Made by a program: the position numbers and the translations under genes | Shown here: positions 2,131 to 20,419 of the stretch, one piece after another | How the letters are laid out: every line of letters begins with the position of its first letter | Position numbering within the stretch: position 1 is the stretch's first letter | Origin: Candidatus Dadabacteria bacterium | GTDB lineage: Bacteria > Desulfobacterota_D > UBA1144 > Nemesobacterales > Nemesobacteraceae | Reading direction: 5' to 3' | Length of the DNA stretch: 64,000 nt | NCBI GenBank assembly: GCA_022827275.1 | Contig: JAJDTG010000015.1 | Location: 67,646 to 131,645, forward strand | Notes under the pieces: model-generated | Told to the model about the DNA's origin: nothing | The model's input: only the letters and a program-made list of their open reading frames with translations | Databases searched by the model: none

Positions 2131-2153
2131 AAGGATTATATACCTTGTTGTCC
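2131..2153 (+). repeat. degenerate IS1595 (ISNwi1-like) left terminal inverted repeat
   Basis: aaggattatataccttgttgtcc is 17/23 identical to the reverse complement of 14118-14140 and shares tatataccttgtt exactly with 8290-8302. Confidence 0.55.
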
Positions 2154-2192
2154 ACCGCTTAAGCGGTTCATGCTAAAAAAAAGCACGGTACG

Positions 2193-2220
2193 TTGAGTCA
2201 TCAATATGCCATGCTATAAT
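2193..2220 (+). promoter_or_regulatory. sigma70-type promoter for the first island cassette
   Basis: ttgagt-16 nt-tataat with an extended -10 (TGc-TATAAT). Confidence 0.55.
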
Positions 2221-2304
2221 TAGTTCTGAGGGTAGAAATATTACCAAGAGAGTCTCTAAAATCTGATGAATAAAACATTTAATAAAGGATAAGTAGGAAA
2301 GTCA

Positions 2305-2739
2305 ATGGCACAAGAATCTGTATACCTCTCTGCTATTCTTCTCTGTCAACAAATATTAAAATCAGAAGGAAAAGAGAAGCTTGTAAGTTTAATAAATATC
2401 TTTGATAATTTGGTTGTTTCTACAAATGCCCCGGTTTCGGCAACAATACAAATTCCGATCGAATGTTATTTATTTGCAAAGCTAGCGGATAAGAAACCAA
2501 GGGGGAATTATGAGCTTGTTATTGAAATATTTTCTCCTTCTGGGAAAAAGCTCGTACAAATTACAGGAAATTTGCAAAACAAAAATATTAGCAAAGCTGG
2601 TAGCATTGGAGATATACTACAGCCGTTACATTTTACAACTGATGAGGATGGAGATCACTTGATAACTATTAAAATTCAAGATCAAATTATAGGAGAAAGA
2701 AAATTATATGTCTCCCGTGAATTTACAACCAAACCTTAA
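2305..2739 (+). CDS. hypothetical protein (DUF6941-like beta-sandwich)
   Basis: 144-aa ORF with RBS; the 'AILLCQQI...KLVSLINIFD' pattern is typical of this family. Confidence 0.6.
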   Translation: MAQESVYLSAILLCQQILKSEGKEKLVSLINIFDNLVVSTNAPVSATIQIPIECYLFAKLADKKPRGNYELVIEIFSPSGKKLVQITGNLQNKNISKAGSIGDILQPLHFTTDEDGDHLITIKIQDQIIGERKLYVSREFTTKP

Positions 2740-3396
2740 ATTCAAATAGGAGAAACTCTATGAGTATCAAAGCTATTATATTTAAAAAAGAACCTAGCCG
2801 ACTTGGTATTGGTATCACCAGTTACGGTCAACCTTCACATGATGTATGGTCTTCTCCCCGTCAATCAGTCATTTGTGTTTACCCTTCTGTGCCTATCCAA
2901 GGAAGTCGAAACGAAATGGTAGTAACAGAGGAAAAAGGAGAAGATCAACTTCCTTTTTCGGAACGGTACACAATCAAAAAATCTATTCGAGAGTTGTTAA
3001 AGGATGCAGGAACAGAAAATTGGGATGGAGAAAATGCTTTTCCCATATTTCCAGAAAGTGTAGAAATTGCAGAAAGTATGGTGGATTTATTCCCGTCAGC
3101 CGATTTCTTGCCAGAGGTTTCTGCAACCCCTAATGGTGAAATAGATTTCGACTGGACTATCTCAAGAGATATCATGTTAACCCTTAGTGTATGTCCCAAG
3201 GGTAAAATTGCATATTCAGGTATCTTCAACGTTGCATATTACGATTTATTCGGACTATCTTTTCAATTGAATTCGGACGGTCATTACGAACGAATTCGGA
3301 CGGCTGAATCTCTTTTTTCTTTTCCCTCAAAACAGACTCTAACACGTTCAGAATTTCTCTGTCAAACGACGATTAAAAAGTCTGTTTTTTTCTCTC

Positions 3397-4185
3397 CTAA
3401 CAATCACCTTTATTCTCTTCTTTTTCCTTTGCCGATGTCTGTTTTTCTTCCTTCTCCGCAACGATCTTTCTCATAGATTCCCCGCCGAGTTCAAGACGAT
3501 GAGAGTTGTGAACGATTCTGTCAAGGATCGCGTCGGCAACCGTGTTGTCCCCTATCATTCCGTGCCACTCACTCACCGGAAGCTGACTTATCACCACAGT
3601 AGAACTCTCCCCGTAACGGTCATCCATTATCTCCATCAGATCATATCTCTGGGCCGTGGTCACAGCCTCAAGACCCCAGTCGTCTATGATAACAAGCCCC
3701 ACTCTGGCAAGCTTTGAGAGAAGCTTGTTGTAGCTTCCGTCCGCCTTTGCCTGAGAGAGAGACAGAAACAGTCTTGAGATCCTGTAGTAACGAACCGATA
3801 CCCCTCTGAGACACGCGTTATGACCCAGGGCGCACGCTATCCATGTCTTGCCGCTTCCACAAGGACCCGTGATAAGAAGATTACGGCCCCGCTCTATCCA
3901 GTCCCCCTGGGCAAGCCCTGCTATCTGGGCCTTTCTCAGGTTACGGGAATGGCCGTAGTCAATATCTGCCAGGTCGGCTTTTAACCTGAAGCGAGCGTTG
4001 CTTACGAGACGCTGCTGTTTTCTGCTCTCCCTCTCAACGCATTCTCTCTCCACAAGCAGTCCGACCCTCTCGGTAAAACCCAGTTCATCGTAAGTGCGGG
4101 GCTGCTCGCACTGACGCTCAAGCGCCTCGGCCATGGCTCCAAGCCGAAGTCCCCGAAGACGTGACAATGTCTGTTGCAAACTCAT
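3397..4185 (-). CDS. istB: IS21 helper ATPase IstB
   Basis: Walker A GPCGSGKT, Walker B IIDDWG, ADAILDRIVH, GESMRK. Confidence 0.95.
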   Translation of the reverse strand: MSLQQTLSRLRGLRLGAMAEALERQCEQPRTYDELGFTERVGLLVERECVERESRKQQRLVSNARFRLKADLADIDYGHSRNLRKAQIAGLAQGDWIERGRNLLITGPCGSGKTWIACALGHNACLRGVSVRYYRISRLFLSLSQAKADGSYNKLLSKLARVGLVIIDDWGLEAVTTAQRYDLMEIMDDRYGESSTVVISQLPVSEWHGMIGDNTVADAILDRIVHNSHRLELGGESMRKIVAEKEEKQTSAKEKEENKGDC

Positions 4186-4203
4186 AACAATCTCCTCCTG
4201 TTT

Positions 4204-5748
4204 TTATTTGTATTTCTTTGCTCCCCTGATGTTCTTGTGATCCTGGGGAAGAACTGTTTCTTTTTCCTGCTCCTCAAACAGCGGCAACACCTTGTCCCTC
4301 CCGTTTTTAAGAATCTCCCTTACCTGCTTGTACCCTGTAAGTCCTTTCCTGTTGGCCACCCTGCATGCGTCGTTGAGTCTTTTGGGATAATCATTGGAGA
4401 GCTTCCTCAACCCCAGAAACGTCCTGTAGACCTGCTCCACATGATCTTTTAACTCAAACTGACGCTCAAGCCATTCACTTACCTCCTCCCCCTGATTCTT
4501 TGCCCAGTTCCGAAGACTCCGCGGATTCCACCTGTAATGTTGCTGATGTCCCCTGGGCATGTGAGAGAACTCGGTACAGTAACGCCTTGTGCTCCGTCTA
4601 TGCTGCGCTATGATCCTGCCTTTGAGGTAGATCGTCACAATGTTCTGTGAGGCGTGAATCTCTACCCTCTTGCCCCTGTGAACGCAGGGAACCGAGTACA
4701 GAACCTTTTTGTACTCCACATGATAATCAATGTTCACCTTCGCTGTCTTTATCTCAGTGTAGATGTAGGGATACGGAGGCAGGGGTTTGAGAGCGGGCAA
4801 ATCAATCTTATCGAATTCATCCCGCCGGCATCCCTCTTCCTTCTGGAAGGGCTTTTTGTTCAGCTTCTCAACAAGCCCCTTTGCGCGTTTGTTGAGCTCT
4901 GCAATGGAGAAGAACTTCTCGTTTCTTATCGGAGCCAGAACGCTTCTCTCCACTATCTGCACAGCCTTCTCCGCCCTGGCCTTGTCCCGGGGCTCGCGGG
5001 GTCTTGTCGGGATTACTATCGTATTGTAGTGATTCGCCCATTGAGCGTAAGCGGGGTTCGTATCGGGATCGTAACGGCACGCCCTTGAAACACCGCTTTT
5101 AAGATTGTCGGGCACTATTATCTCAGGAACCCCTCCGAAGAACTCAAGCATCCGTGTGTGACTCCCAAGCCAGTCGGGAAGGGTCTGTGACGCGGTGGCT
5201 TCGGCAAAGGTGTAATTCGACGCCCCCATGACCCCGACGAATATCTGAGCCTTCGTAACTTCTCCCGTATGTGGGTCCGTTATGTTCACTGCAGGCCCGG
5301 AGTAATCCACAAAGCACTTCTCCCCGGCCTTATGCACCTGCACCATTGAGGGTGGCCTGTTCTCTTTACGCCACGCATTGTACAGCTCGCAGAACCGAGT
5401 ATAGCTGTAACAGTCTTTGCCCTTGTTGGCTTCGATGTACTCTTCCCAAAGAAGCTGCCTCGTCACCCCCTTTTTGGTGAGTTCCTTGTTTATATAAGAG
5501 AAGTCAGGCAGCACCTTGCCATCATAGACTGCCTCGGGCCTGGGATAGAGAATCTCCTCAAGCTTCTGATCATTAAGATCTTCGGGGAGGGGACATTGCA
5601 GACCCGCTTTCTCAGCCTTGCGAATTATATCGTTAACGCTGCTTTTGGCCTTGTTAACGCTTTGGCCGATCTTCATGGTTGAGAGATTCAGGGACCTGAG
5701 CCTCAGGACCTCTCTTATTGTTCTCGTATCCATTCTTCTTCTCGGCAT
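4204..5748 (-). CDS. istA: IS21 DDE transposase IstA
   Basis: N-terminal HTH, FVDYSG, VPDNLKSGV, PRDKARAE, YSVP. Confidence 0.95.
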   Translation of the reverse strand: MPRRRMDTRTIREVLRLRSLNLSTMKIGQSVNKAKSSVNDIIRKAEKAGLQCPLPEDLNDQKLEEILYPRPEAVYDGKVLPDFSYINKELTKKGVTRQLLWEEYIEANKGKDCYSYTRFCELYNAWRKENRPPSMVQVHKAGEKCFVDYSGPAVNITDPHTGEVTKAQIFVGVMGASNYTFAEATASQTLPDWLGSHTRMLEFFGGVPEIIVPDNLKSGVSRACRYDPDTNPAYAQWANHYNTIVIPTRPREPRDKARAEKAVQIVERSVLAPIRNEKFFSIAELNKRAKGLVEKLNKKPFQKEEGCRRDEFDKIDLPALKPLPPYPYIYTEIKTAKVNIDYHVEYKKVLYSVPCVHRGKRVEIHASQNIVTIYLKGRIIAQHRRSTRRYCTEFSHMPRGHQQHYRWNPRSLRNWAKNQGEEVSEWLERQFELKDHVEQVYRTFLGLRKLSNDYPKRLNDACRVANRKGLTGYKQVREILKNGRDKVLPLFEEQEKETVLPQDHKNIRGAKKYK

Positions 5749-5975
5749 CTTGTTACCTCCTTGCCTCAGATTGCAAGCAGGTTAACAAAACGCTTTTTAA
5801 TGATGTTTTCGGGAAGAAGAAAAAGGGGGGATTCAGCCGTCCGAATTCGCTCGTAACTACCGTCCGAATTCAGTCGTAATATGCAAACGTGGAAGGAAAT
5901 GAAGAATGGAACAACCAGTTACCCTCTGGTGTCGTCTGTTGGCTTGCTGGTTTACAAAAATGCCAACAGAAATAA

Positions 5976-6386
5976 ATGAACAATTTTTTAGCTCGCTTTG
6001 CTTTAGAAAGAGGGAAAATAAAAGAAAAAGCAGGGGAAATAATTGTCGACCCTCGATTATTTGAACCCAATAGCCAATTACTTCTATCCACTGCACGAAT
6101 AGAGGATTTAACTTGTGCGGAGATAAAAGAAGTAGGAATTAATGTTGCTAGAAAACACAAGACTGCAAAACATCTTTACGGATGGGCACAATTTTCTAGG
6201 AATGTAATAAATGAGATTGGTCTTGAAATTGACGATGACCCACCACCATCTCGACACTCTGATATAAAAGGTTGGCCGAAAGAAAAAGAAAAACGAGTGA
6301 GTATGAGACGTGAATTAGCACTAAAATCGAAACCAGTCTTACTAGAAGAAAAAATTCCTATAAACAAAACAGAAGCATTAGATTAA
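5976..6386 (+). CDS. hypothetical protein, possible ART/RES-like fold
   Basis: 136 aa with LARF..F.P...LS..R...H.DI.GWP pattern; fold is an inference. True start may be 5960 if the T6 run carries an extra base. Confidence 0.55.
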   Translation: MNNFLARFALERGKIKEKAGEIIVDPRLFEPNSQLLLSTARIEDLTCAEIKEVGINVARKHKTAKHLYGWAQFSRNVINEIGLEIDDDPPPSRHSDIKGWPKEKEKRVSMRRELALKSKPVLLEEKIPINKTEALD

Positions 6387-6722
6387 TAACTCCCAAAAAA
6401 ACCAAAACTCATAGAACCGATTCCCGCAACTTTGGGTCAGATTGTTAAGTCGTTCTTTATCAAAGCCCCAAAACCTAAGAAGCTTTCTAAGAAAAACAAG
6501 AAAAGTCAGTCCTAACCTACTTAATCTTGGCTAGTTTTGTATCGTGCTTTCAAGTTTGAAACGCAACAGGTGGATTAGTACCGAAGAATACCTGATTGGG
6601 GGTTTTTGTGTTATTCGCTTTTTTAAGAGTGGGAATAACTTTTTAAGCTTACAAGCTGTGTTGCTTCAGAACATAGGCAGTGCTCTTAGTTCTTTGAAGA
6701 TCCAAGTCCGCAAAAGCCAGTA

Positions 6723-6929
6723 TTATTTCTCTACCAATCCCAGAACATCTAAGATTTTAAGAGCGCTTGACAGCTGAATGTCTTGTTTTTGCTGCTCAAA
6801 GCGCGAGATCGTCGGTTGACTTACCTCCGCTATAGTGGCCAGGCGGCGCTGGGAGATTTTTCGTTCCTTGCGCCGCTTTATTGCTTCTTTGACAAGTAAG
6901 TCCCAATTGAGTCGAATGTCCCGTTCCAT
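6723..6929 (-). CDS. XRE-family HTH protein, HipB-like antitoxin
   Basis: ISQRRLATIAEVSQPTISRFEQ HTH; overlaps the 3' end of hipA. Confidence 0.85.
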   Translation of the reverse strand: MERDIRLNWDLLVKEAIKRRKERKISQRRLATIAEVSQPTISRFEQQKQDIQLSSALKILDVLGLVEK

Positions 6930-8089
6930 CTTTTCTCCATTTGCCGATGTAGTTTGTCTTTAATGTCCTGGCCGATACCCTTCGAAGCATCAACGACGCT
7001 GTGGGCTTTGTCGAGACGGCTGGCGAAATCCGAAACTGCCAGCATGACCGCTCTGTCAGGCAGGCCGAACAGCTTGCCCAGCCGGATCATGTTCTTCGCG
7101 CCGATCTTGCCGATTCGCATGTTCTCGGTCCCTGAAATCCCCAGTGCCAGTGTCTGATATTGCGGGTAGCAGGCGGCTGCAACGAGATCATAGCAGGGCG
7201 CGAGGCGTAGTCCGCTTTCTGTATGCTCCATAGCGAAGTTTTTAAGATGTGCATCTGTATTTCCCGTGAGAATACAGGCCATTACCCGGCGAAACAGTGT
7301 ATCGCACTCTGCCCGCAGGCATATGTCGCCATTTTGGATAATGAAATCGGCCATGTGCTCGTAGCAGCCCTCATACTTGTCCTCCGAGTGGTTACCGAGC
7401 AGCTGGTTAAATTCCTCGAAGTGAATTCGCTCGCCGTCTTCAGTCCTGTCAAACCGTTTGACGAGCAGAGATCTATCCGCAACGCCTTGGAGCGGCGCCA
7501 AGGTCATCTCCGCAACGGTGTCTTCCTTAAGAAGGGCTGCGCACGCCTGCGTAGTTACACACTCAAGCCCCAGGATATCGGGCAGCACAGGGGAGGGAAG
7601 CTTGGCTATATGGGTTGCCCGTTCACCGCGCCCTACAGGGCGAAACACGCGGCCTTCCTTTATTGCGCCCAGTTTTGGCTGAACCCCGCAAAGAGACGCC
7701 CTTGCTGAAAGCGCCGCAATGTTTTCCGGGTCGTCGTGGTCGATTTTAATGTCCCCGGCAGGATCCGGGTCAATGATGCTTACGGCGCCGGCAAGGTCTG
7801 TGCCGAAGGCAAGCAGCAGCGGGAAACGGTCGTCCCTCTGCAGGCCGAGTGCGCGTGCCTGCGCATCCTTAAGCCAGCCCTCGGCGCATAGATTGTCAAA
7901 GAAAGGATGCAGTCCGTATTTGCTTAAATGAGGCTCGGTCCGAAGCGGCAGCGTGTAGGAAATAGCAGGCGAAGAGCTTTGCAGATAGCCCTCGTCGTAA
8001 GTGAATACGCATCGGCTTCCAGCCTCCTGCGAGAGAACGCCGGCGAAAGTATCCTTGTAATATACTTTGCCCCAGAGATTGGTTGCCAT
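6878..8089 (-). CDS. hipA: HipA-family Ser/Thr kinase toxin
   Basis: N-terminal coupling domain (LHPFFDNLCAEG), SLCGVQPK, GNTDAHLKNF, LAPCYDL. Confidence 0.92.
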   Translation of the reverse strand: MATNLWGKVYYKDTFAGVLSQEAGSRCVFTYDEGYLQSSSPAISYTLPLRTEPHLSKYGLHPFFDNLCAEGWLKDAQARALGLQRDDRFPLLLAFGTDLAGAVSIIDPDPAGDIKIDHDDPENIAALSARASLCGVQPKLGAIKEGRVFRPVGRGERATHIAKLPSPVLPDILGLECVTTQACAALLKEDTVAEMTLAPLQGVADRSLLVKRFDRTEDGERIHFEEFNQLLGNHSEDKYEGCYEHMADFIIQNGDICLRAECDTLFRRVMACILTGNTDAHLKNFAMEHTESGLRLAPCYDLVAAACYPQYQTLALGISGTENMRIGKIGAKNMIRLGKLFGLPDRAVMLAVSDFASRLDKAHSVVDASKGIGQDIKDKLHRQMEKRWNGTFDSIGTYLSKKQ

Positions 8090-8120
8090 TGATTCAATCC
8101 GTCTAATTATTGTTAATAGT

Positions 8121-8229
8121 ATTAGAGATTATAAAATATATTTTGTCAAACATGGATATTGTAACATTTAAATAAAATAGGATTAATCAAACAAGCCCTT
8201 AAATAGTTTAATAATCAAATATATTTGAT
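8121..8229 (-). promoter_or_regulatory. hipA promoter with two palindromic operator candidates
   Basis: Minus-strand TTGACA (8144-8149)-17 nt-TCTAAT; palindromes aaaatatatttt (8133-8144) and perfect atcaaatatatttgat (8214-8229). Confidence 0.55.
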
Positions 8230-8283
8230 CCATTTTCCAAATAAGAATTTGTCAGTAGTTTTGGTTCCTGCAAATTGTAGGGA

Positions 8284-8302
8284 CGGAACTATATACCTTG
8301 TT
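8284..8302 (+). repeat. IS1595 (ISNwi1-like) left terminal repeat copy
   Basis: cggaactatataccttgtt matches the reverse complement of 20208-20230 (gggaactatatac) and the 2131 copy. Confidence 0.6.
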
Positions 8303-8334
8303 AACCAGAGGAGGCTGGATAAAGCACCTGGAAA

Positions 8335-8661: not shown

Positions 8662-8756
8662 ACAGTGCTAGCCAAGATTTTCGGAGTTTTTGGGTGGTCG
8701 GTTTCTTTCTCAAATACAGTCCGAGATGTTTTATAAGAAGAAGAGTAGCTGCGCGA

Positions 8757-9836
8757 CTAGAAGGAATATTTTTCGCAACCGTCAACATCCTCATTGTCCT
8801 CATAATCATATACGAATGCTACGCTTTGTTCGGCGCGCGTTATTGCCACATACAATTTAGAACGGCTTGTTGGTGCAAGATCACTGCTATTGTCTTTCAG
8901 CCACTTTTTTATCGGAATGGTTGGATAAATAAGCACTCTTTCGAAAGAAAGTCCTTTGGATTCCCCAAAATTCATAACTGGAGCATAGTCTTTTACCTCA
9001 ACGTCTTCTCTATTCCGCAGTTGCATTGGCCTATACCTGGAAAGGTAACAATCTACATCTTTTTGCCTAACCAGGAACACTCCATCATGATTCGTTGAAC
9101 GCTTGTTGCCTGACTGGGTCTGCGGACGCTGATAAAACAATTTATTTGATAAATCGCAAATCGCTGGAATGCTGCGGTAGTTTATTCTGAGTAGTTGATC
9201 ATCTACTTCAATATTTGAGATATCCTCGAAAAAATCGAGGATCTTATCTCTTGCGTATTGATTATTTCTAGCGGAGTTGCTCGTGGAGTAAGTTGCCTGA
9301 CGCAGGTCACCCACAAGAAGGGTATTGATGTTAGAGTCAAAGAGCAATCTAAGAAAATCAAGATCATAACCAGACAAATCCTGCACCTCATCAATAAACA
9401 AATAGTGGTAAATCCGAGATAACCTGTCTAAAACTTTTCCGTCGCTTGCTTTGTTACATTTTAAGAGAAATTTTGATATCTTGTCCGAGTAGATTTTTTG
9501 TCTCCCATCAAAATAATGTTTTTTAATGTCGCTTTCCTTACTGTATGGAGCAGATCTGCTGTTGACCAAATTCATCCCTTTAATGTCATGATCAAATAAA
9601 CCTCCTTGATAAGGTCTTGCACCGTGTTGCAACAGTGTCGAAAACCATGTCTGTACAGTGATATTGCCCGGCATGAATTTATTTTTCTCTGTTATCTTTT
9701 TTCTTATTTCTGCCTCGTTTGCTTCCGTGAAGGTGGTCATCAAGACATTCTTGTCTTTTATCTTTAATGCCTCTTCCACGAGGAGGGTGGTCTTGCCGGA
9801 ACCGGCGGCCGCAACAATAAGCCTGTTATTTTTCAT
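8757..9836 (-). CDS. gajB: UvrD-like helicase, Gabija GajB-like
   Basis: AAAGSGKTT, FIDEVQD, SKGLSFE, LYVAITRA; short (359 aa) and coupled to the upstream OLD nuclease. Confidence 0.8.
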   Translation of the reverse strand: MKNNRLIVAAAGSGKTTLLVEEALKIKDKNVLMTTFTEANEAEIRKKITEKNKFMPGNITVQTWFSTLLQHGARPYQGGLFDHDIKGMNLVNSRSAPYSKESDIKKHYFDGRQKIYSDKISKFLLKCNKASDGKVLDRLSRIYHYLFIDEVQDLSGYDLDFLRLLFDSNINTLLVGDLRQATYSTSNSARNNQYARDKILDFFEDISNIEVDDQLLRINYRSIPAICDLSNKLFYQRPQTQSGNKRSTNHDGVFLVRQKDVDCYLSRYRPMQLRNREDVEVKDYAPVMNFGESKGLSFERVLIYPTIPIKKWLKDNSSDLAPTSRSKLYVAITRAEQSVAFVYDYEDNEDVDGCEKYSF

Positions 9837-11488: not shown

Positions 11489-11752
11489 TCTGAACTCCGT
11501 AAAAGTTAAATAGTTGTATTATTTTACCCACAGTTTTTTGGAAGAGTCTGACAAACTTGCAGAATCCACCTGTATAAAGATTCTCCGACGGCTATTAATA
11601 TCTGGGATAGGTAGGGATAACTGTATAGCTTAGAAAATCATAAAGAGAGAAAAGAAACTCAACGGTTATGATCCAAAACCTATTAGACATTGTTATAACA
11701 AAGCGAGACAATACAATTCTTTACGGTTCGGGGCGCTAGAAGAGAGAACAGA

Positions 11753-12637
11753 ATGAGCTTATTTGAAACGGACAACTGGGAGTCGGAGAAGGTTTATCGT
11801 ACTGATTCCGGCGATATGGTTCGGAGCAAGCAGGAGAGGTTTGTTGCCAATCTTCTTACTTCAGAGGGTGTTTCCTTCGAATATGAAAGGGAACTGTCTA
11901 GCTGGGATGGTTCTTTCCGCTACCCGGACTTTACTCTCTTTATCAAAGGCGAACTGTATTACTGGGAACACTGGGGGATGGTTGATGATTACTCTTACCG
12001 ACAATACATTGCCAGGAAGATCAGGTGGTATCGTGAGCACGGCTACTATGACTACCTGATTCAGACATGGGGAGGGGGCGACAGAGACTTGAGGGGGCAG
12101 GTTCTGGCCGAGTTGCACAGGTTGAGGAAACCCAAACGCAGGAAAATCGGATACAAGCCTGTTTCCGATTCCCATGCTGGCTGGAAGACGGGACATGAAC
12201 GCCTGACGGAAAAGCTAGAGAAGACGGTTAGACATAAAATGTCTCGGTCCAGGGCTGCGAAGAAACCTAGGAACAGAAAGACACCGCAATCTCCCCGTGG
12301 CCAGCAACCCGAAACAGCCTATAGGCCTGAAGAAGAGGACTCTGTTGGATTTATTAATCAAGATAGCGGACAGAACACGCGGGGATGGGTCATACCCCTT
12401 GCCGTAATCTTAACGCTTTTTATTCTCGGCGCTTTTTTTAGTTCCATACAGGTGCCCGAGCCAGTCACCAAGTCGAAAGCACTGAAAGCTGTTTCGCAGA
12501 AGCCGGAACCGGAAAAAGAATTGGAAACAGTAAAAAAGCCTCATTCAACCACCCAGGAGATTAAGACTGGGGAACCGATAACGGAAAAGAAGGAAAAAGA
12601 AGAGATGTTTTATATGGGAATCAAGATATCTCAATGA
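11753..12637 (+). CDS. PD-(D/E)xK-like nuclease domain fused to a TM helix
   Basis: VRSKQE..VAN.L...FEYE...YPDFT...YWEHWGM, then a hydrophobic stretch WVIPLAVILTLFILGAFF and a K/E/P-rich tail. Confidence 0.7.
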   Translation: MSLFETDNWESEKVYRTDSGDMVRSKQERFVANLLTSEGVSFEYERELSSWDGSFRYPDFTLFIKGELYYWEHWGMVDDYSYRQYIARKIRWYREHGYYDYLIQTWGGGDRDLRGQVLAELHRLRKPKRRKIGYKPVSDSHAGWKTGHERLTEKLEKTVRHKMSRSRAAKKPRNRKTPQSPRGQQPETAYRPEEEDSVGFINQDSGQNTRGWVIPLAVILTLFILGAFFSSIQVPEPVTKSKALKAVSQKPEPEKELETVKKPHSTTQEIKTGEPITEKKEKEEMFYMGIKISQ

Positions 12638-12675
12638 AAAACTAAGTGTTCCCCTCTTTTTTTTACGGAATTTTT

Positions 12676-12698
12676 GGCTAGTTATGTGTATAATTCCC
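12676..12698 (-). repeat. IS1595 (ISNwi1-like) right terminal repeat
   Basis: ggctagttatgtgtataattccc is 19/23 identical to 20208-20230; its reverse complement begins GGGAATTAT. Confidence 0.7.
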
Positions 12699-12699
12699 C

Positions 12700-12895
12700 C
12701 TTCAGAAGGTAGGTGAATGAGGCTGTGGGAAGGCATAACGCAAGGCAGGAATCCACTATGGAAAACATCTCGAAGGTAGCCAGAGGCATGCTTGGTAAGA
12801 GACTTAGTTACAAGGAACTCACGAAAGAACTGTCACCTGAGAGTGAGTGGGTGATTTTGTTAGTCTGTAAAGATAATCATGGTATATTCATGTGA
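12700..12895 (+). pseudogene. C-terminal remnant of an IS1595-family transposase
   Basis: LQ/R*VNEAVGRHNARQESTMENISKVARGMLGKRLSYKEL resembles the HLQRYVNEF..RHN...GKRLxYxxL C-terminus of IS1595 transposases; carries a stop and a frameshift. Confidence 0.75.
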
Positions 12896-12907
12896 CATAG
12901 GTGAAAA

Positions 12908-13450
12908 ATGAAAATGCGATTGACAAAGATACTGGCTTTCTTTTTTCTAGGATTTCTTATTTCTGCAAGCGTGCAAGCGAACCAACTGGCAGCGGAGGAC
13001 GAAGAATTCATTGACACTTATATGAGACAGTTTCAGCTTTTTAACAATTGTGAACAGATTGGATTGAGTGTAGCCATTGAGAGACAATCCTCAAAGTTGA
13101 ATTTAACGGAGAAAGCAATAACTAACGCCGTAGAATCGAGACTGCGTTCTGCTCGTATTTTTACTGATAGCTACAATAATTTCTTAGATGTAGATGTAAC
13201 CATAGTGGGACCTGCATACAACATATATGTCGCATTTGTAAAATCTCTTGAGGACTACCGCTTGAGCGAACATCTTTCCTCTCCCCTTCCTATAGTTGGT
13301 TCAGCACACACATGGCGTATGGGGTCTACTGGTGTACACGCCGGACAAGAAGGCTTTATCTTATCACGACTTTCGCAAATAGTTGACGGGTTCCTAGTTG
13401 ACTATTTTAAGGCGAATCAGGAGAAATACTGTAGCAAGAAAGGGAACTAA
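12908..13450 (+). CDS. exported hypothetical protein
   Basis: Signal peptide ending ..SVQA; two Cys. Confidence 0.7.
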   Translation: MKMRLTKILAFFFLGFLISASVQANQLAAEDEEFIDTYMRQFQLFNNCEQIGLSVAIERQSSKLNLTEKAITNAVESRLRSARIFTDSYNNFLDVDVTIVGPAYNIYVAFVKSLEDYRLSEHLSSPLPIVGSAHTWRMGSTGVHAGQEGFILSRLSQIVDGFLVDYFKANQEKYCSKKGN

Positions 13451-13550
13451 CTGCACCTGTGTGGCTCTGACAACGTTTTACGAATAAAGAGAAAAATCAA
13501 AGTGGCTAGCCACATTCAATGTGCTATACTTTAGGTGTGGAGGTTGCCCT

Positions 13551-13778
13551 ATGCCAGACTCGGATGGAAAATTTACCCAAGCAGAATTTAATACATTGTC
13601 TCAGTGGCTAGCCAGTAATAATATAAAATGTGCTTCATGTGGCCATAGAGGTCTATCCATAGGGACTTATCAAGTACAGATAAATTGCTCTAAGCCTGGA
13701 TTAAGCTATCCGGGAATGCTCGTGGTATGTAGCAAGTGTTCATATTATAACATCTTTGGATTGGAGGGAAAATTATGA
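13551..13778 (+). CDS. small Zn-ribbon protein
   Basis: RBS ggagg before ATG 13551; CASCG...CSKC. Confidence 0.65.
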   Translation: MPDSDGKFTQAEFNTLSQWLASNNIKCASCGHRGLSIGTYQVQINCSKPGLSYPGMLVVCSKCSYYNIFGLEGKL

Positions 13779-14083
13779 CTGTTGGTACCTTTGAACCTCA
13801 AGAACACCAGCAAAATGGATTTTTTGAGCCTCAAGAAGACTGGAAAGCGAGTTCTCCCACATTGGAACAAATAATGACAGACATAAAGTATCGAGGCACT
13901 AAAGAAGATTTTGCTAACGTAAAAGCTGATTTTTATTTGAAGACTGCTGAAATACAGCAGGAACACCATCTCACCGTCAGATATGTAGTAACACTTGTTC
14001 TTCTTGCTATGGGAGTGGTGTTCGCTGTGTTTGCTTTGTTTGTTAAGTTTTTCCCGAATAACCCAACTCCTTTTTCTTATTAG
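13775..14083 (+). CDS. hypothetical protein with C-terminal TM helix
   Basis: ATGA overlap with the previous gene; hydrophobic C-terminus. Confidence 0.6.
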   Translation: MTVGTFEPQEHQQNGFFEPQEDWKASSPTLEQIMTDIKYRGTKEDFANVKADFYLKTAEIQQEHHLTVRYVVTLVLLAMGVVFAVFALFVKFFPNNPTPFSY

Positions 14084-14117
14084 TTCTTTCCAATCGGTAA
14101 AACAAAAAACTAGGGAG

Positions 14118-14140
14118 GGGCAACAATGTACATAATTCCC
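14118..14140 (-). repeat. IS1595 (ISNwi1-like) right terminal repeat
   Basis: gggcaacaatgtacataattccc (reverse complement gggaattatgtacattgttgccc). Confidence 0.65.
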
Positions 14141-14346
14141 AAGCTTTCTTTAAGCTAGGGCAACCTATCTCCGCAACCATGCGGATTTTCCGCTGAAACC
14201 CGAAAAGCGTAAGCTAGTGATTAGAAGGACTTATGAAACACGAAATTCCGCAAATTCCGTTATTTTTTCACACCCCGAAAAACCTCGTTTTTAAGCCGTT
14301 TTTTTTAACGAGTTGAAACTTTCGGCAATCGTTGAAAAATTGCACG

Positions 14347-14375
14347 TTTTGGTTAGTTGAGTATATGTCATCCCC
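14347..14375 (-). repeat. degenerate right terminal repeat copy
   Basis: ttttggttagttgagtatatgtcatcccc resembles ttttggctagttatgtgtataattccc at 12672-12698. Confidence 0.4.
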
Positions 14376-14425
14376 ACAGTGGTTAAGACATTTGAGTATG
14401 ACACAAATCTAGTTGCTATGGTTGT

Positions 14426-17400
14426 TCAGATTTCTTCATTGACTAAAAGTGCATAACGTACTTCTGGCATTGGGTCAGACTGTGAGGTCTCTATCCATTC
14501 ATTGAGCACTGGTTCTTTGAGACCTGCGTTTTTTAGAGCTACAGCAAGCCTCACACCCTTTTTACGAATCAGTCCGACATCAGAACGACGGGACATATCA
14601 CGCCAATTTTCATAGTTTGTCTCAGTGTCTAAGAGTTCAAGTGCATGGACAAGTTGATGTTGGTCTGGTGTCGAAACGATAGCCGAATCAACAAACAGAC
14701 GCACGAGGTTAAGAGCCGAGATCAGACCCGGTTCACGTCTCATTAAACAGATTGAAACTGTTTCATCAATAAGTTTTTTAGGAATTTTGGAGATGTTCTG
14801 TTGCTTCTTTAGTCTATAAAACCGGAAAACCGCCGCCAGTGCGGCTCTGACAATATCTGAATCTTGGCTGATCATCCCTTTTTGTATTGCTCTCGTTGCT
14901 TCTTCAGCCAAGCTCTCGTCAAGCCTCACAAGTTCCGGCAGGGCTGTCAGGAGCTCTGGAAAAGATCCGTCCGAAGCACGGTCTATAAAAGCACGAGTTT
15001 GTTCCTCTCCAATTTCGGACGGTTGAAGTGAAGGTAAAACGGTTGATGCCAGCGCATTAGCAATCAAATTAGGAATTTTTCTATCATTAAAGTCTTTGCG
15101 CCAAAATGTTGAATTGACACTTGTGGTTTGAGATTTCCAATCTAGGGCATGTTTCACAATATTCAGTGCATTCTCAGGGCTTATTCGGTAGGGTTTGTAC
15201 TGGCCTTTGAGTGAATACGATATTCCAACAATAGATAGCAAAAGATCTTCATTTAAAGAACCGTTTGCTAATTCTATAACGACTTCTCTGTCGAAAATCT
15301 CCCGAGATGCATCAGGGTTGGGGCTTGGTAATTGCAGGAAGACATAAAGTAAAAGATTAGTATTGGCTGGAAAATCGTTGTTTCCAGCATGTTTCCAGAT
15401 TGCCTTCCCGAAATCTCTGATCTCATTTTTTGTCAATTTATCGTGTGTAAAGAGTTTGAAGAGCCTGTAAGTTGCGTCTGGACGTGGTGAATTACTTGAG
15501 TTGTCAGAAACAGCGTTGATGAGGGAAGTCACCCGGGATGACCATTCGCGATTCCGTTTTCGTGCCTGCCATGCGTTATTATCTAGAGCGTTAAAAACAT
15601 TCATCCATATGAATTCTGATTCACTGATTTCCTTTTCACGGCTAAACGGTAATAGCAGAACATCAAGAGCAGCTTCCCCGTGCCTTTCAGGTTCTAATGC
15701 CTTCAAGCTCCGGAACAAGAGATTACTCACGCTTTTAAGTACCCATTTATCCTTCAAGTTTGGATCATGAGCTAACGAGACTCCAAAACGAAACAGGTCT
15801 AATGCCTTATCGCCTTGGAACCGCATGCTGAGGCGAGACAAAAGTTCGGTAAGAACGTGGATGCGTTCATTCCAAAACATGTTTTGTCCTGTTGAGCCAT
15901 CGTCATTAATTTTTAAGAGTCTGTTTTTTCCAAACACAATGGCGTTACGCAAGCTTTGGACAATTTCTGATATAATATTGCATTCTAGGCGAGCGACCGC
16001 AACACGGTTGAAATGATTTTCAATTGTTTTACGTTCCTCAGCTATTACGGCATGTACAGATGCCCAAATGCCTACAGGACTGTAGTCTTCATTTAAGACT
16101 TTTACTGCTCGGACCAATCGCCACCCGAAAATGTCCATTATGTCGAGTCTGAGCGGAATACCTATATATTCGGCCAAGCGGTTAAGGTCATTGTAGGGAG
16201 ATGTGACAGCGGGGTTAGAGAATGTATTATATGCTGGAACCATAACGGTACTGTAAGTGCCCGCATCAAACTGTGGATCTCGGTCAAGTAAATTATCATG
16301 ACGCGAATGGTCGGCATCTTTGATTTTTCCTTCAAGATACTGCAGTTCATCCCAAGGGTCGGTGTCGTTAGCTTTATACTCGGGAGGCCAGTCCACTCGT
16401 TCGTCAAATGGATATTCTTCCAACGCAAAACGTGCACTTTCTTTAAGCCATGATATCCAAGCTTCCCTCGAAAGGAGCCATAACGATCTTCGGTCCTTTG
16501 TTCTTTTTTGCTGAATTTCATGGTGAGCTTCGTAAATCAGCTTGGATGCTGCAGAGGCATCTCCAAGTTCAGCGATAAGAGCAGCTTTGCGCAGCAACCA
16601 AATCGGATCAGATCCGATAATATCTTTAGCATGTGTAGCTAAAAACTTGTAATCAAGTTCATCTTTGGCTCTAAGGCAGCGTTCGTAGAGAGCTTCTACT
16701 TTTGCTGCCGGATCGTCCAGCATGTCAAGAAACTGGATCCGCTGATCAAAAGTTACCCAATCCCGTCTATGGCGTGCAACGCGGATGATTGCCGTGCGGA
16801 GCAGGATCCGATGTTCCAAAGACAGCGAACTATCATCATTGGTTTTCACCATTTCGGACACTGTATTTTCTAGAAAATTTGGCAATGGCCAGAATGCAGT
16901 CTCGGATAACCAGACCGCTTCGTAGAGAGCAGAAGCTCTTGTAGATTTTGAGGCGTTGGTGAAAAGATCTGACTCAAAAAGTTCTCTGGACTCGCTGAGG
17001 TTGTTCCGTATAGTTGCTCTCAACGGCGGCGGTGTTACCAACCACCCGGGATGAGTTTCCCTGTCTCGCTTCCAGATTTTTATTATATGGGTTAATTGTG
17101 AGTCGGATTCAGGAACATTCTGATCGCTTCCTTTGTATGGAGTAGGGCTCCATTTTGCCTTTGAGGGTTTTCCCCGCTCCAGAAATTTTAGGAAGACCTC
17201 AATTGCGTAGCGATGATGATCTTCTGGATTAAGGTCGCTTGGTATTATAGGCGCAAGGTCAATTGGGGTAATATTGCGTCCTCTTAGGAAATGGCGTCTG
17301 GAGTCGGAAAGATTAAGAACACCGACTAACCTGATTGGTCTGGCCATAGTTCCGAGATGATCTCGAACCCACCCCGACCATTTGAGAAAGTTGGGGTCTT

Positions 17401-18064
17401 CGCCTGAGAATCCAAGCAAGCAGAGTTCATTCTCAAGCAGTACTTGCCGTACCAGATTAACAAACGGTGCGTATAGTGTTGGATAAGTGCGGAAATCTTC
17501 TTCAGTGAAGATAAGGGGACTGTGCGATGGCAAGCTACCATGAAGCTTGACAATCCGAGGGGACTTGGTGCGGGTAATATCGAGTGGAACACGCACAACA
17601 TCAAACGAAATGTCTGGATTGGATTCAGCGGACCTCTCCAAGAGGGTATCCCAGTTGGTTGTTAATACATCCATCCATGGTAAGGATAAAAGACGACGGT
17701 GAATTTCTGCTGGATTTCTTTCGGTGTCTCTTATTTTAGATCTGATTAAGTTCTCTAGGGCTGAATCGCCGAGTGCGGCACCATATTCTTCCGCAAGGGC
17801 TAGTGGATCGGATGGACCACCTTCTTTCGGATAGAGTAGTTCCTCTAGCATCGCCTTATGAAAATCGGGCCACAAAGGGGCAAGAGGTGTTGTATCGGCA
17901 ATTCGGTCCGCAAACCTGCTGAAGCCTGCACCAATCATCACAGCGGCACCGTAAATTTCTCCGATTCTCCAGAGTGCATTTCGAACCTGGCACAATGCCG
18001 GATAGTCAGGAAGCTGTTCTATTTCTATTTTTTCTATATCTGTCAAAAATCTTTTCCTTTCCAT
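14426..18064 (-). CDS. large SIR2-domain (NADase) defence protein
   Basis: VMIGAGFS, TTNWDTLLE, IVKLHGS, GFSGEDPNF, then a long helical C-terminal region; 1212 aa. Confidence 0.88.
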   Translation of the reverse strand: MERKRFLTDIEKIEIEQLPDYPALCQVRNALWRIGEIYGAAVMIGAGFSRFADRIADTTPLAPLWPDFHKAMLEELLYPKEGGPSDPLALAEEYGAALGDSALENLIRSKIRDTERNPAEIHRRLLSLPWMDVLTTNWDTLLERSAESNPDISFDVVRVPLDITRTKSPRIVKLHGSLPSHSPLIFTEEDFRTYPTLYAPFVNLVRQVLLENELCLLGFSGEDPNFLKWSGWVRDHLGTMARPIRLVGVLNLSDSRRHFLRGRNITPIDLAPIIPSDLNPEDHHRYAIEVFLKFLERGKPSKAKWSPTPYKGSDQNVPESDSQLTHIIKIWKRDRETHPGWLVTPPPLRATIRNNLSESRELFESDLFTNASKSTRASALYEAVWLSETAFWPLPNFLENTVSEMVKTNDDSSLSLEHRILLRTAIIRVARHRRDWVTFDQRIQFLDMLDDPAAKVEALYERCLRAKDELDYKFLATHAKDIIGSDPIWLLRKAALIAELGDASAASKLIYEAHHEIQQKRTKDRRSLWLLSREAWISWLKESARFALEEYPFDERVDWPPEYKANDTDPWDELQYLEGKIKDADHSRHDNLLDRDPQFDAGTYSTVMVPAYNTFSNPAVTSPYNDLNRLAEYIGIPLRLDIMDIFGWRLVRAVKVLNEDYSPVGIWASVHAVIAEERKTIENHFNRVAVARLECNIISEIVQSLRNAIVFGKNRLLKINDDGSTGQNMFWNERIHVLTELLSRLSMRFQGDKALDLFRFGVSLAHDPNLKDKWVLKSVSNLLFRSLKALEPERHGEAALDVLLLPFSREKEISESEFIWMNVFNALDNNAWQARKRNREWSSRVTSLINAVSDNSSNSPRPDATYRLFKLFTHDKLTKNEIRDFGKAIWKHAGNNDFPANTNLLLYVFLQLPSPNPDASREIFDREVVIELANGSLNEDLLLSIVGISYSLKGQYKPYRISPENALNIVKHALDWKSQTTSVNSTFWRKDFNDRKIPNLIANALASTVLPSLQPSEIGEEQTRAFIDRASDGSFPELLTALPELVRLDESLAEEATRAIQKGMISQDSDIVRAALAAVFRFYRLKKQQNISKIPKKLIDETVSICLMRREPGLISALNLVRLFVDSAIVSTPDQHQLVHALELLDTETNYENWRDMSRRSDVGLIRKKGVRLAVALKNAGLKEPVLNEWIETSQSDPMPEVRYALLVNEEI

Positions 18065-18078
18065 GATTTTTTCACAGT

Positions 18079-18100
18079 TGGAATTATATACAATCCTACC
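18079..18100 (+). repeat. IS1595-like left terminal repeat copy
   Basis: tggaattatatacaatcctacc faces the right end at 20208-20230. Confidence 0.5.
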
Positions 18101-18346
18101 AAATTTCTCCCTTGAAAATTAATGTCTTTTGTGCACATTATACAGTGTGAGGGAGGGTTTTGACCACAATATAAAGAGTATTTGACGGAGAATTGCAATT
18201 TCCTCGTCAGTCCTTCTTGTAGATATAAGGAAGAATCTTAGAATGCCTAAACCTAAAAAAGAAGTAATACAAGTTCTCCCGAGAGAATGCGTCTATTGCT
18301 CTCACCACAAACATTTTGTCCAGAACACAACATCTAATAATTCATA

Positions 18347-19279
18347 TTGTTTGGAGGAAAAACAATCTATATCAAAGGAGAGGTGTCGCTAGAGACGCGC
18401 CGAAACATCATTGATTGTCTGAGGATTGAACAGGTTCCTTGGAGTGGCACCCTGGAAGACATTGAGTTTTTGGAACGCCTCTACGATCTTGACTCGCTCC
18501 CATCTTATGATAGCCGTTTTGATAATGCTGCTAGTGATATATGGCAGCATCGGGTTAATAACCACGATTGGGATAACGACTGGGTATATGATGATTCTCG
18601 CTTCGACCTGTTAAATGGACCGACGGATACTTTTCTACGGTTCTTGTGTGAGGTTGTTCATCCCGTCGTACGCCCTGATCAAGATGAGTCTCGCCAACTG
18701 GTTCGGCACTTCAATGACCAGCTGCAACCTGAAGGTTGGCAAATTGTTGAAAAGGGGAAAATTGCTGGACGCCCATGCTTTGTCGCTCAGCGGATGCAAC
18801 CTGAAAGCAATCAGTTAATATCTCGTGCGCATTCGGTTGCTACAGCACTTGATGCAGATTGGATGAGGAACGAAGTTGAACGGTTACAAGAAGCTATAGA
18901 AGATGATCCTGCGCTTGCTATCGGCACAGCCAAAGATCTTGTCGAGACATGTTGCAAAAGCATATTGTCAGATCGGGGTGTGCAGATTCCTCGTAAAGCA
19001 AATTTGCCAAAACTCACCAAGCTTCTTGCAAAAGAACTGAAGCTGGTTCCTGAAGGTGTTTCCGATGAAGCTAAAGGTGCTGAGAGAATTCGTCTGATAT
19101 TGAGCAATTTATCTGCCCTGACGCAGTATCTAGCTGAGCTTCGTGGTTTATATGGTTCTGGTCACGGCCGCAAGGGAAAATATCGGGGATTGAAACCACG
19201 ACATGCTCGCCTTGCGGTTGGAGCGGCGGTGACTTTTATTGAATTTATTACAGAGACGCATTATCAGCGAGGTAACTAG
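18347..19279 (+). CDS. AbiJ-like abortive infection protein (AbiJ NTD3 plus Abi_C)
   Basis: FLERLYDLDSLPSYDSR..DIWQHRVNNHDW and AIGTAKDLVETCCK...LRGLYGSGHG; likely GTG start at 18383 after aaggag. Confidence 0.85.
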   Translation: MFGGKTIYIKGEVSLETRRNIIDCLRIEQVPWSGTLEDIEFLERLYDLDSLPSYDSRFDNAASDIWQHRVNNHDWDNDWVYDDSRFDLLNGPTDTFLRFLCEVVHPVVRPDQDESRQLVRHFNDQLQPEGWQIVEKGKIAGRPCFVAQRMQPESNQLISRAHSVATALDADWMRNEVERLQEAIEDDPALAIGTAKDLVETCCKSILSDRGVQIPRKANLPKLTKLLAKELKLVPEGVSDEAKGAERIRLILSNLSALTQYLAELRGLYGSGHGRKGKYRGLKPRHARLAVGAAVTFIEFITETHYQRGN

Positions 19280-19292
19280 AGCAGTTATTGAT

Positions 19293-20096
19293 TTAAAACA
19301 GCGTTTTAGTAAGTTTCATAACACCATTGATAAGGTCAGTTACTTCATCTTCTGAAGGCTCTTTTTCCTTGTTGTGGTCACATAGATTTCTAAGGTCACC
19401 GAGATATTGATTTGATCTCCATTGAGGAAGATCAATTACATTGGCATTTTTCAATGCGTCATTAAAGTCTGCAATTACAAGGTTTCTCTTCTTGATTCTG
19501 ATTCCATGGTTTCTGCAGACTTCCGCAATATGTTTTTCCATCACAACCCCTGCTATTGCACCCCCAGCTCTGAAAAAGCCATGCTTTACCAGTGCCATTG
19601 CGGCTTCTAATTCAGAGTCGAATAGGTCTGCCTGGACAATTTGTTTGATATCGAAGAGCGAACTTTCAAAACGGTCCCTAATGGCTTTGACTATCGCAAG
19701 TTGCTGTCTGAACCGAGGGATTGCTGCGTCAGGGCCAACAACAACTTCGTAACTCCTGCGAGTTATGTTAAGATCCATAAGGTAGTCGGATATCCGATAG
19801 CTTTCGTAGTCTATCTCTTTACGTCCCCTTGGTTTCTCGTAATGACCAGCAAAATCATCTAGACGGTCTGGGAGTAATTGACGTATAAGAGCCTTTGCTT
19901 CTGAATACCAAGTTTCATACTTCTCAGAAAAATTCGGCAAGTTGTCTAAAAACTCTGAAGTTTTATCCTTTAGTTTTTTTCTAACAAGGTTTTCATAATC
20001 TTCTGGGTCACATTCATAATGCATAGCATGAAATAGTTCGCTGCCCGTTTTTATGAGTTTTTCCAGATCATTCTTATGTCGTTCTAAATTATTCAA
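19293..20096 (-). CDS. HEPN-domain protein
   Basis: C-terminal RAGGAIAGVVME...LRNLCDH (RxxxxH). Confidence 0.75.
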   Translation of the reverse strand: MNNLERHKNDLEKLIKTGSELFHAMHYECDPEDYENLVRKKLKDKTSEFLDNLPNFSEKYETWYSEAKALIRQLLPDRLDDFAGHYEKPRGRKEIDYESYRISDYLMDLNITRRSYEVVVGPDAAIPRFRQQLAIVKAIRDRFESSLFDIKQIVQADLFDSELEAAMALVKHGFFRAGGAIAGVVMEKHIAEVCRNHGIRIKKRNLVIADFNDALKNANVIDLPQWRSNQYLGDLRNLCDHNKEKEPSEDEVTDLINGVMKLTKTLF

Positions 20097-20207
20097 TGAT
20101 AAGATCCCCGAAGATTGTTTGGAATGAAATCACTGTGTCGATTGTTTCGTGTGACTATAACAGATAATGGAAATCTTCACCACGATGAAACACATATAAG
20201 GATTTCC

Positions 20208-20230
20208 GTCTAGCTATGTATATAGTTCCC
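20208..20230 (-). repeat. IS1595 (ISNwi1-like) right terminal repeat at the island boundary
   Basis: gtctagctatgtatatagttccc; core-genome composition resumes just after it. Confidence 0.7.
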
Positions 20231-20232
20231 TT

Positions 20233-20245
20233 GGGGGGGGGGGGG
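20233..20245. repeat. poly-G homopolymer (13 G)
   Basis: Directly visible. Confidence 0.9.
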
Positions 20246-20419
20246 TAGTGATATTTTTTCCTCTGCGGTTAAAATGTTTCTCCGAATCCGGGCTTCCGCC
20301 TAGGATCCAAAGTACCTTTTTTAGCGTTTGAGGTCGGATTCTCGATAGCAAAAAAAACGCGGTTGCTCTGCGTTGCAAATTCCCCCGCGGCCCATCTTCG
20401 TCGCGTTTTGCATGGACAA

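Follow-up and report, generated by a model that had tools for sequence, protein, structure and literature searches.

Insertion sequences (IS) of the IS1595 family make 8-bp target duplications, encode a transposase with a zinc finger and include transporter IS that carry passenger genes, as set out in two sources (PMC8101967, PMC11891212). Here we describe an 18.1-kb island of lower G+C content that lies between the core genes dnaK (150-2069) and aceE of a Candidatus Dadabacteria bacterium, in which predicted defence genes are interspersed with copies of a repeat of ~24 nt, made up of GGGAAYTATATAC and a variable inner half. The stretch of DNA analysed, hereafter the window, is 64,000 nt long and corresponds to G000:C12:67646-131645, from a 1.77-Mb genome in 25 contigs; positions given without a contig or locus are those of the window, and the prefixes G, C and L denote genomes, contigs and fetched loci. 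In common with described transporter IS, the elements from which we derive the repeat combine a DDE_Tnp_IS1595 domain and an N-terminal zinc ribbon with ends that start in GG, 8-bp duplications and internal passengers. The island itself differs from them, in that its transposase is cut to ~38 residues, its ends are without duplications and the inner halves of its repeats are not those of the autonomous copies seen.

Other systems offer further points of comparison. Miniature inverted-repeat transposable elements (MITEs) and non-autonomous derivatives are paralleled in the genus by transposase-free, repeat-bounded elements of 257 bp to 2.8 kb with 7-8/8 target duplications, whereas the elements seen to have moved here carry no recognised defence gene. 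IS26 translocatable-unit arrays form by targeted conservative insertion beside a resident IS26, and they share with the island cargo that is interleaved with transposon ends, a lack of internal duplications and abutting elements; unlike them, the island has 24-nt ends rather than whole IS between its blocks, belongs to a different family and would involve a cointegrate chemistry that is putative. From what is generally known of integron arrays, these too are promoter-proximal modular units at one locus with short recurring boundaries and defence cargo, but the island is without an intI-type recombinase among the 19 open reading frames (ORFs) scanned, its boundary is a DDE transposon end and not an attC hairpin, and its units stand in mixed orientations. 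Lastly, defence hotspots flanked by core genes likewise have conserved flanks, empty sites in some species and a strain-variable defence content, and the present locus departs from them in having internal borders marked by the ends of one transposon family more often than chance.

Our data suggest that IS1595-type transposons helped to build the island piece by piece. We consider it rather probable that the island is a mosaic of defence modules within a hotspot, several of them bounded by IS1595-type ends and delivered as repeat-bounded units.

The repeat and the transposons that carry it

The genome encodes two intact IS1595-type transposases, on contigs C8 (308 aa) and C18 (312 aa), both of which match DDE_Tnp_IS1595 (PF12762, E = 1e-41 to 1e-43) and possess an N-terminal Zn_ribbon_IS1595 (PF12760). 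The C8 element (C8:93801-95773, 1973 bp) has inverted repeats of 27 nt at 85% identity and an 8/8 target duplication, AAACATTC, and the C18 element (C18:124316-127273, 2958 bp) has repeats that agree at 24/24 positions and the likewise perfect duplication TATTTTTT (8/8). A survey of public genomes yielded 44 loci with relatives of the C8 transposase (35-92% identity), drawn from Candidatus Dadabacteria and from metagenome-assembled genomes (MAGs) of several other phyla, and in 36 of these the motif (GGGAAYTAT...) lies ~60-125 nt upstream of the transposase gene. Nineteen repeat pairs were found at the related loci (1.3-5.0 kb), 14 with an 8/8 duplication, one with 7/8 and four with 4/8 or fewer, and within the genus 31 of 36 genomes have matches to IS1595 transposases. 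A preliminary description of this DNA had called for a search for intact IS1595 transposases with the same ends, and the two resident elements and the 36 related loci now supply them. Because intact elements with the motif and 8-bp duplications occur both in the genome and in its relatives, it is strongly supported that the motif forms the terminal inverted repeats of one clade of transporter IS within the IS1595 family. The clade is active in the Candidatus Dadabacteria lineage and in other MAGs. It may correspond to the ISNwi1 group named in the preliminary description, which we take to have ends of the form ggnnatTAT, a printed consensus not having been found in the literature searched.

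That elements of this type carry passenger genes, as had also been proposed, is evident from the additional ORFs held by both the C8 and the C18 elements and from 20 passengers scanned at the related loci. Seven of these are fusions of an N6/N4-methyltransferase with HNH, three are other transposases and six were without a match, the rest being one each of a methyltransferase with T5orf172, a D12 methyltransferase, a protein with a SocA/Panacea antitoxin domain and a PRTase. The methyltransferase-HNH fusions (7/20) recur as cargo across several phyla (L080, L087, L084, L077, L095, L099 and L112). The C18 element (L066, C18:124200-127400) also contains a second, inverted C-terminal transposase remnant (…GLEGKSLRYKELVN, at 2147-2335 on the minus strand), and may be a composite of two copies.

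The motif is far more abundant than expected of shuffled DNA, as the preliminary description had anticipated. A weight matrix trained on five copies in the window, applied with a cut-off of at least 18 bits, returned 22 sites in the 1.77-Mb genome versus 0, 1, 2, 1 and 1 in five local shuffles; at 12 bits or more the matrix is noisy, with 61 genome matches versus 16-38 in the shuffles. Of the 13 occurrences of the 12-mer GGAAYTATRYAC in the genome, five are inside the island (1% of the genome); across 36 genomes of the genus it is found 356 times versus 22 for its reversed control. Elsewhere in the window (20.3-64 kb) there is a single weak match of 9.8 bits, and the loci of 11 relatives (~128 kb in total) contain 17 matches of at least 13 bits.

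The same ends also bound elements without an IS1595 transposase. All seven tnpB genes of the genome adjoin at least one copy of the motif, and four of the seven lie between repeat pairs (see also loci L113 and L117):

C15:80033-81337, tnpB cassette between repeats
C19:4683-5929, tnpB cassette between repeats
C19:20001-21303, tnpB cassette between repeats
C23:10255-11502, tnpB cassette between repeats

Target duplications at the four paired cassettes are 6/8, 5/8, 7/8 and 7/8, and DDE-type elements, rather than IS605/IS607, appear to be the carriers of these tnpB genes. Their proteins possess OrfB_IS605 and a Cas12f1-like TNB domain. Among relatives we found a 2798-bp pair with tnpB and an IS5-like transposase (duplication 8/8), a 1209-bp pair that encloses a 353-aa ORF without assigned function (8/8), a 1285-bp tnpB pair (7/8), a 257-bp MITE-like pair (7/8) and a 276-bp pair (3/8). 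Because of such target duplications we conclude that repeat-bounded units without an IS1595 transposase have moved within the genus. For pairings of TnpB with DDE transposases a passage of a 2026 review names only ISL2, IS630 and IS1031, and we found no paper on a pairing of TnpB with IS1595 in the literature, supplements of which may list more. Two inward-facing copies of the repeat nearly touch at C19:25330-25378 and in G017 (L059 6180-6228), 49 nt from outer edge to outer edge, a palindrome that is conserved in the two genomes and may represent a minimal element or else a hairpin that serves some other purpose.

The dnaK-aceE island and its repeats

The island contains six main copies of the repeat, each ~24 nt long, and a weak extra copy that was absent from the preliminary description:

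2131-2154, plus strand, leftmost repeat AAGGATTATATACCTTGTTGTCCA; 11.1 bits ungapped, degenerate, with one base of the GGGAA start absent
8284-8307, plus strand, repeat CGGAACTATATACCTTGTTAACCA; 25.7 bits
8651-8674, plus strand, weak extra repeat GGGGATAACATACAGTGCTAGCCA; 17.1 bits, ~83 nt beyond the 3' end of gajB
12675-12698, minus strand, repeat GGGAATTATACACATAACTAGCCA; 35.0 bits
14117-14140, minus strand, repeat GGGAATTATGTACATTGTTGCCCC; 24.4 bits, read as the right end of a decayed transporter IS
18079-18102, plus strand, repeat TGGAATTATATACAATCCTACCAA; 25.9 bits
20207-20230, minus strand, rightmost repeat GGGAACTATATACATAGCTAGACG; 30.8 bits, 11-15 nt from the right island border

The preliminary description had placed left copies starting at 2131, 8284 and 18079 and right copies ending at 12698, 14140 and 20230, and all six are where it put them, on the plus and minus strands respectively. 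The identities it quoted were exact (12676 versus 20208, 19/23; 2131 versus the reverse complement of 14118, 17/23; 13 nt shared by 2137 and 8290), and we confirmed that all six copies are intergenic and that the outermost two stand at the shift in G+C (from ~0.55 down to 0.39 near 2000-2500, and from 0.43 up to 0.57 near 20000-20500). In G038 a homologous repeat is found at the matching position after the 294-aa gene listed below. The repeat at 2131 marks the left border of the island; on the right the ATG of aceE is near 20433, and the conserved upstream region of this gene begins at 20241-20246 in all aligned relatives. A run of 13 G at 20233-20245, where relatives carry 9 other nucleotides, separates the rightmost repeat from the conserved region and may be a slippage tract or an assembly-prone site. 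The weaker copies that had been suggested fared less well, as no match of at least 8 bits is present near 6551 and a gapped resemblance, seen by eye only and ending at ~14380, is all that was found near 14375. The former site falls in a separate 67-nt repeat (6540-6606) that is unrelated to the motif and single-copy in the window; many copies of it at 84-95% identity, without an Rfam or tRNA match, are present in other genomes of the genus (e.g. 8 in G011).

Between and around the repeats the island carries the following features:

2305-2739, plus strand, DUF6941 gene (Pfam PF22091, E = 1.6e-7); first cargo gene inside the left repeat
2760-6386, plus strand, gene without assigned function, interrupted by IS21; halves ~2760-3228 and ~5892-6386
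3229-5891, minus strand, IS21 element; istB 3397-4185, istA 4204-5748 (Pfam IstB_IS21, rve, Mu-transpos_C_2)
6878-8089, minus strand, HipA-like kinase gene (Pfam HipA_C and Couple_hipA)
8757-11488, minus strand, Gabija operon; gajB 8757-9836 (PADLOC GajB, E = 3.8e-132), gajA 9836-11488 (PADLOC GajA, E = 5.2e-223)
11753-12637, plus strand, gene for a 294-aa protein (PADLOC PDC-S68, E = 3e-32 over residues 5-110)
12713-12826, plus strand, C-terminal remnant of an IS1595 transposase, by tblastn with the C8 transposase
12908-14083, plus strand, three small ORFs (180, 85 and 102 aa) in the position of the passenger genes of the decayed transporter IS
14426-18064, minus strand, DSR2-type SIR2 gene, 1212 aa (PADLOC Dsr2, E = 2.4e-164; Pfam SIR2_2)
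18347-19279, plus strand, AbiJ gene (Pfam AbiJ_NTD3, E = 6e-60, and Abi_C; PADLOC AbiJ)
19293-20096, minus strand, gene for a 267-aa protein, HEPN/DUF4145-like by language-model look-alikes only

Gabija, DSR2 and AbiJ match the protein models of their systems over the full length and have a predicted defence function, the Gabija genes having Pfam matches as well. The defence cargo of the preliminary description is thus borne out by PADLOC and Pfam for Gabija and AbiJ, and for its HEPN-type gene by language-model look-alikes only: the atlas neighbours of the 267-aa protein have similarity scores of 0.96-0.97, and a Pfam scan of it gave nothing. The N-terminus of the 294-aa protein is similar to the C-terminal nuclease-like domain of PDC-S68, and none of the small ORFs in 12908-14083 matched Pfam or PADLOC. 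The block with the 294-aa gene (11740-12650) is also present in G038, G005, G002, G031, G008 and G009, and the HipA block (6679-8277) is common to many genomes of the genus, with its right limit (8276/8277) 7 nt from the repeat at 8284; Gabija DNA had zero matches in 35 other genus genomes. IS21 is a secondary insertion with no relation to the motif. Its terminal inverted repeats were detected by self-match and a copy with 98-99% identity is found in G032; in G008:C85, which also holds a block homologous to the DUF6941 region, the window segments 2909-3228 and 5892-6356 are separated by just 5 nt. Rfam and tRNA scans across the island gave nothing relevant. Non-coding DNA includes a 285-nt stretch between the repeat at 14140 and the 3' end of the DSR2 gene (14141-14425), which is without an Rfam match and shares 14199-14375 with G034 at 77% identity.

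A dead fragment of an IS1595 transposase had been reported from the island, and it is found at 12713-12826, where GMLGKRLSYKEL aligns with GLVGKRLTYQDL in residues 271-308 of the C8 transposase (37% identity; tblastn against the window, E = 1.4e-4); the Pfam DDE model missed it. Since only this C-terminal remnant of 38 residues is left, the island is without a working transposase. The order of transposase end, three ORFs and right repeat at 14140 is that of the C8 and C18 elements. Because of the remnant and this order, we read 12699-14140 as a decayed transporter IS that comprises a transposase remnant, three passenger ORFs and a right end. The passenger ORFs of C8 and C18 have no similarity to the small ORFs of the island, and when island DNA was compared with what lies between the ends of the IS1595 and tnpB elements of the genome, matches were confined to the repeats, apart from hits of 15-28 nt with E of 0.004-0.075. 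In the close relative G010 a 5'-truncated IS1595 transposase gene adjoins the aceE upstream region at a contig end (G010:C63:17861-18218); at its end it matches the window remnant (87%), and it runs the opposite way with respect to aceE.

The gap between dnaK and aceE is a genus-wide hotspot with conserved flanks and variable defence cargo, in agreement with the single hotspot of the preliminary description. It is empty in 6 (0.15-0.27 kb) and filled in 16 (0.76-36.6 kb) of the 22 genomes in which both genes could be placed, a count outside which stand G010, with dnaK and aceE on different contigs, and G014, with no dnaK match. The islands of relatives contain a second Gabija subtype, OLD/AriA-like, TIR and type I, II and IIG restriction-modification proteins, and 8 of 10 large proteins from them match PADLOC defence models. 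Fragments of the aceE upstream region or 5' coding sequence are duplicated within the islands of G007 (L021 6671-6738) and G005 (L023 3459-3578). The island of G017 has an imperfect direct repeat of ~17-21 nt (GCCGAAATAGTT..GCT.CAG) at both junctions (L025 ~286-306 and the aceE side), which is longer than an IS1595 duplication and also precedes the aceE upstream region in several relatives.

Repeats and strain breakpoints

Breakpoints were collected from genomes of the genus and from other strains, the latter represented by assembled contigs from other sponge metagenomes (by run labels) of three studies. Only contigs that join across a stretch were counted, and uncovered stretches in runs X3, X4 and X9 were not taken as absence. 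We scored a breakpoint as lying at a repeat when it was at or no more than 25 nt from one, the six repeats with their 25-nt margins covering ~2.5% of the island.

Among the genomes, the dnaK flank shared with G015 stops at 2135, the block with the 294-aa gene stops at 12650-12681 and the block with the 267-aa gene at 20231-20240, and at an AbiJ locus elsewhere in the genome of G040 homology begins at 18103, the inner edge of the repeat. In G013 the 267-aa gene and its repeat are found ~58 kb from aceE, with homology that stops at the outer repeat end, and a 170-aa HEPN gene is repeat-bounded at different positions in G018 and G036, where homology begins at the outer repeat end. Among the contigs, one shows joints 8277>8648 and 8675>11740, so that a piece of 28 nt with the weak repeat is kept and Gabija is absent (the matched side is just these 28 nt), and contigs from three runs skip 12651 to ~14400 (12650>14401 or 14419; 12644>14419 in X4). 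Further joints are 6868>11740, 12650>20245 and 19287>20260, and three runs have ~89-94 additional nt at 18079-18085. In another case a 5' fragment of aceE adjoins the repeat at 8284 in place of hipA (20531>8299, with ten letters in between that complete the repeat). In all, five of the six repeats have a breakpoint at or near them, and five or six of ~17 distinct end points lie at repeats, which is far above chance since repeats and margins make up only ~2.5% of the island.

Two outward-facing ends were found 7, 8 and 7 nt apart in relatives (the G001 island, the G043 hipA locus and the G031 island, respectively). Such abutting ends fit insertion beside a resident end; the triple duplication expected of such events was not seen at these three places.

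Assembly of the island and its significance

According to the account that we favour, modules would have reached the island as units bounded by repeats, through the action of an IS1595 transposase in cis or in trans, and some were probably inserted adjoining resident ends. Homologous exchange from strain to strain, at conserved flanks and shared blocks, would have eliminated the target duplications, with mismatched or solo ends remaining, and further insertions (IS21) and deletions would have added to the loss. Because exchange, insertions and deletions would have removed the duplications in this way, most copies in the island would be relics and not a working array. The aceE fragments that G005, G007 and one contig hold in duplicate hint at such a loss of duplications through recombination. 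Mobilisation of the modules in trans is what we infer from the tnpB cassettes and MITE-like copies elsewhere.

Several observations weigh against delivery of the modules in this form. The 26 combinations of left and right flanks, 1-2 nt offsets included, are without an 8-bp duplication, the best agreeing at 4/8 positions, and the hotspot repeat pairs of G018, G017 and G036 have none either. Paired repeats of the island are of mismatched subtypes, only 2131 and 14140 having a common inner half (17/23), and the inner halves (…CTAGCC, …TTGYCC and …CCTACC) are not the …GGTTGACA of every autonomous element seen; because of this difference, recognition of the island repeats by the resident transposases is only putative. 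The left border of hipA (6679/6868), the right border of Gabija (11740) and the border between AbiJ and the 267-aa gene (19287) are away from repeats, DSR2 lies between repeat pairs and outside all of them, and Gabija is without a matched pair of its own. Strain variation had been expected to break exactly at the motifs, an expectation that holds at or near five of the repeats and fails at other end points (2291, 6356, 6679/6868, 11740, 14401-14419 and 19287); some contig joints, moreover, have short sides of 28-45 nt, and all other-strain sequence is in the form of assembled contigs. The elements seen to have moved hold tnpB, another transposase, the 353-aa ORF or nothing. A search of the fetched loci for second sites returned one-ended cases only (the 267-aa gene of G013 and the 170-aa gene of G018 and G036), and no two-ended defence unit with a duplication was found there. 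The nested order of three left and three right ends arises by chance in 5 of 20 arrangements and is not significant, and a Pfam scan of the 19 island ORFs detected no integron-type recombinase. The interpretation offered in the preliminary description is partly supported, strongly for the origin of the motif in transposon ends and weakly for an integron-like nested array mobilised in trans.

A stronger version of the account we favour is a cassette system free of an integrase, with IS1595-type ends as its junctions, in which transposase-free units between repeats, with defence genes or tnpB as cargo, would be moved in trans by the transposases of resident transporter IS and would insert preferentially beside resident ends, at 7-8 nt from them, and so stack up at the hotspot. 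This we hold to be possible but doubtful.

The main rival explanation is that the repeats are debris, left when ordinary IS1595 and tnpB elements inserted into a pre-existing island that had been built by homologous exchange at dnaK and aceE, with solo ends arising from deletions and the defence genes never having been carried. The absence of target duplications from the island, the mismatched repeat subtypes and the many borders away from repeats would all be explained by it, as would the IS21 insertion, which shows that the island tolerates IS, and the aceE 5' fragment duplicates in G005, G007 and one metagenome contig, which point to recombination at the flank. We nevertheless judge it unlikely. 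The 267-aa gene travels with its repeat, lying ~58 kb from aceE in G013 with homology up to the outer repeat end, and the 170-aa HEPN gene is repeat-bounded at different positions in G018 and G036, and such one-ended cases of cargo plus repeat argue against debris; in addition, G011, where Gabija is of another subtype, likewise carries a repeat that faces inwards ~70 nt past gajB, and autonomous relatives often carry defence-type passengers.

The motif might instead be a promoter or operator that drives adjacent genes, as its reverse complement GTATATAATTCC holds a perfect -10 box (TATAAT), TATAATTCC is found 10 times in sense versus twice in antisense upstream of crude ORF calls, and 9-10 of the 13 exact 12-mer sites point to a downstream gene on the same strand. 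The same 24-mers, however, flank transposase and tnpB genes as inverted pairs with 8-bp duplications, promoters 7-8 nt apart would fire into each other at three places in relatives, the copies at 2131 and 14140 face no gene, the six main copies are without a -35 box at workable spacing (by eye), and aceE retains its own conserved upstream region in genomes with an empty site. A promoter is therefore highly improbable as the explanation of the motif, and it was dropped as the main one on account of the inverted pairs with duplications around transposases and the face-to-face pairs. Scarcely credible, finally, is that the 24-mers serve as sites for a dedicated system of site-specific recombination and that the island is a true integron-like cassette array: breakpoints at inner and outer repeat edges, the island's lack of target duplications and the fixed 7-8 nt spacing of abutting ends would suit it, but the 19 island ORFs scanned include no tyrosine or serine recombinase, the sole integrase fold being that of IS21 IstA (rve), and all autonomous elements that have these ends code for a DDE transposase and generate 8-bp duplications.

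Returning to a mosaic of modules bounded by IS1595-type ends, its interest is that accounts of defence islands usually present them as hotspots and say little on how they are assembled, and that here the ends of one transposon family mark many of the internal borders. In this MAG and in others (from sponge metagenomes, by run labels), the cargo of the family includes fusions of a methyltransferase with a nuclease, a protein with an antitoxin domain and tnpB. Should the modules be truly mobile, the repeat would serve as a search key for cargo, including the candidate defence genes at 2305-2739, 12908-14083 and 19293-20096, and the presence of tnpB inside ends of the IS1595 type would lengthen the short list of associations of TnpB with DDE transposases in prokaryotes. 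In that event DDE transposons of this kind would also join integrons and Tn7 as a route by which defence genes travel.

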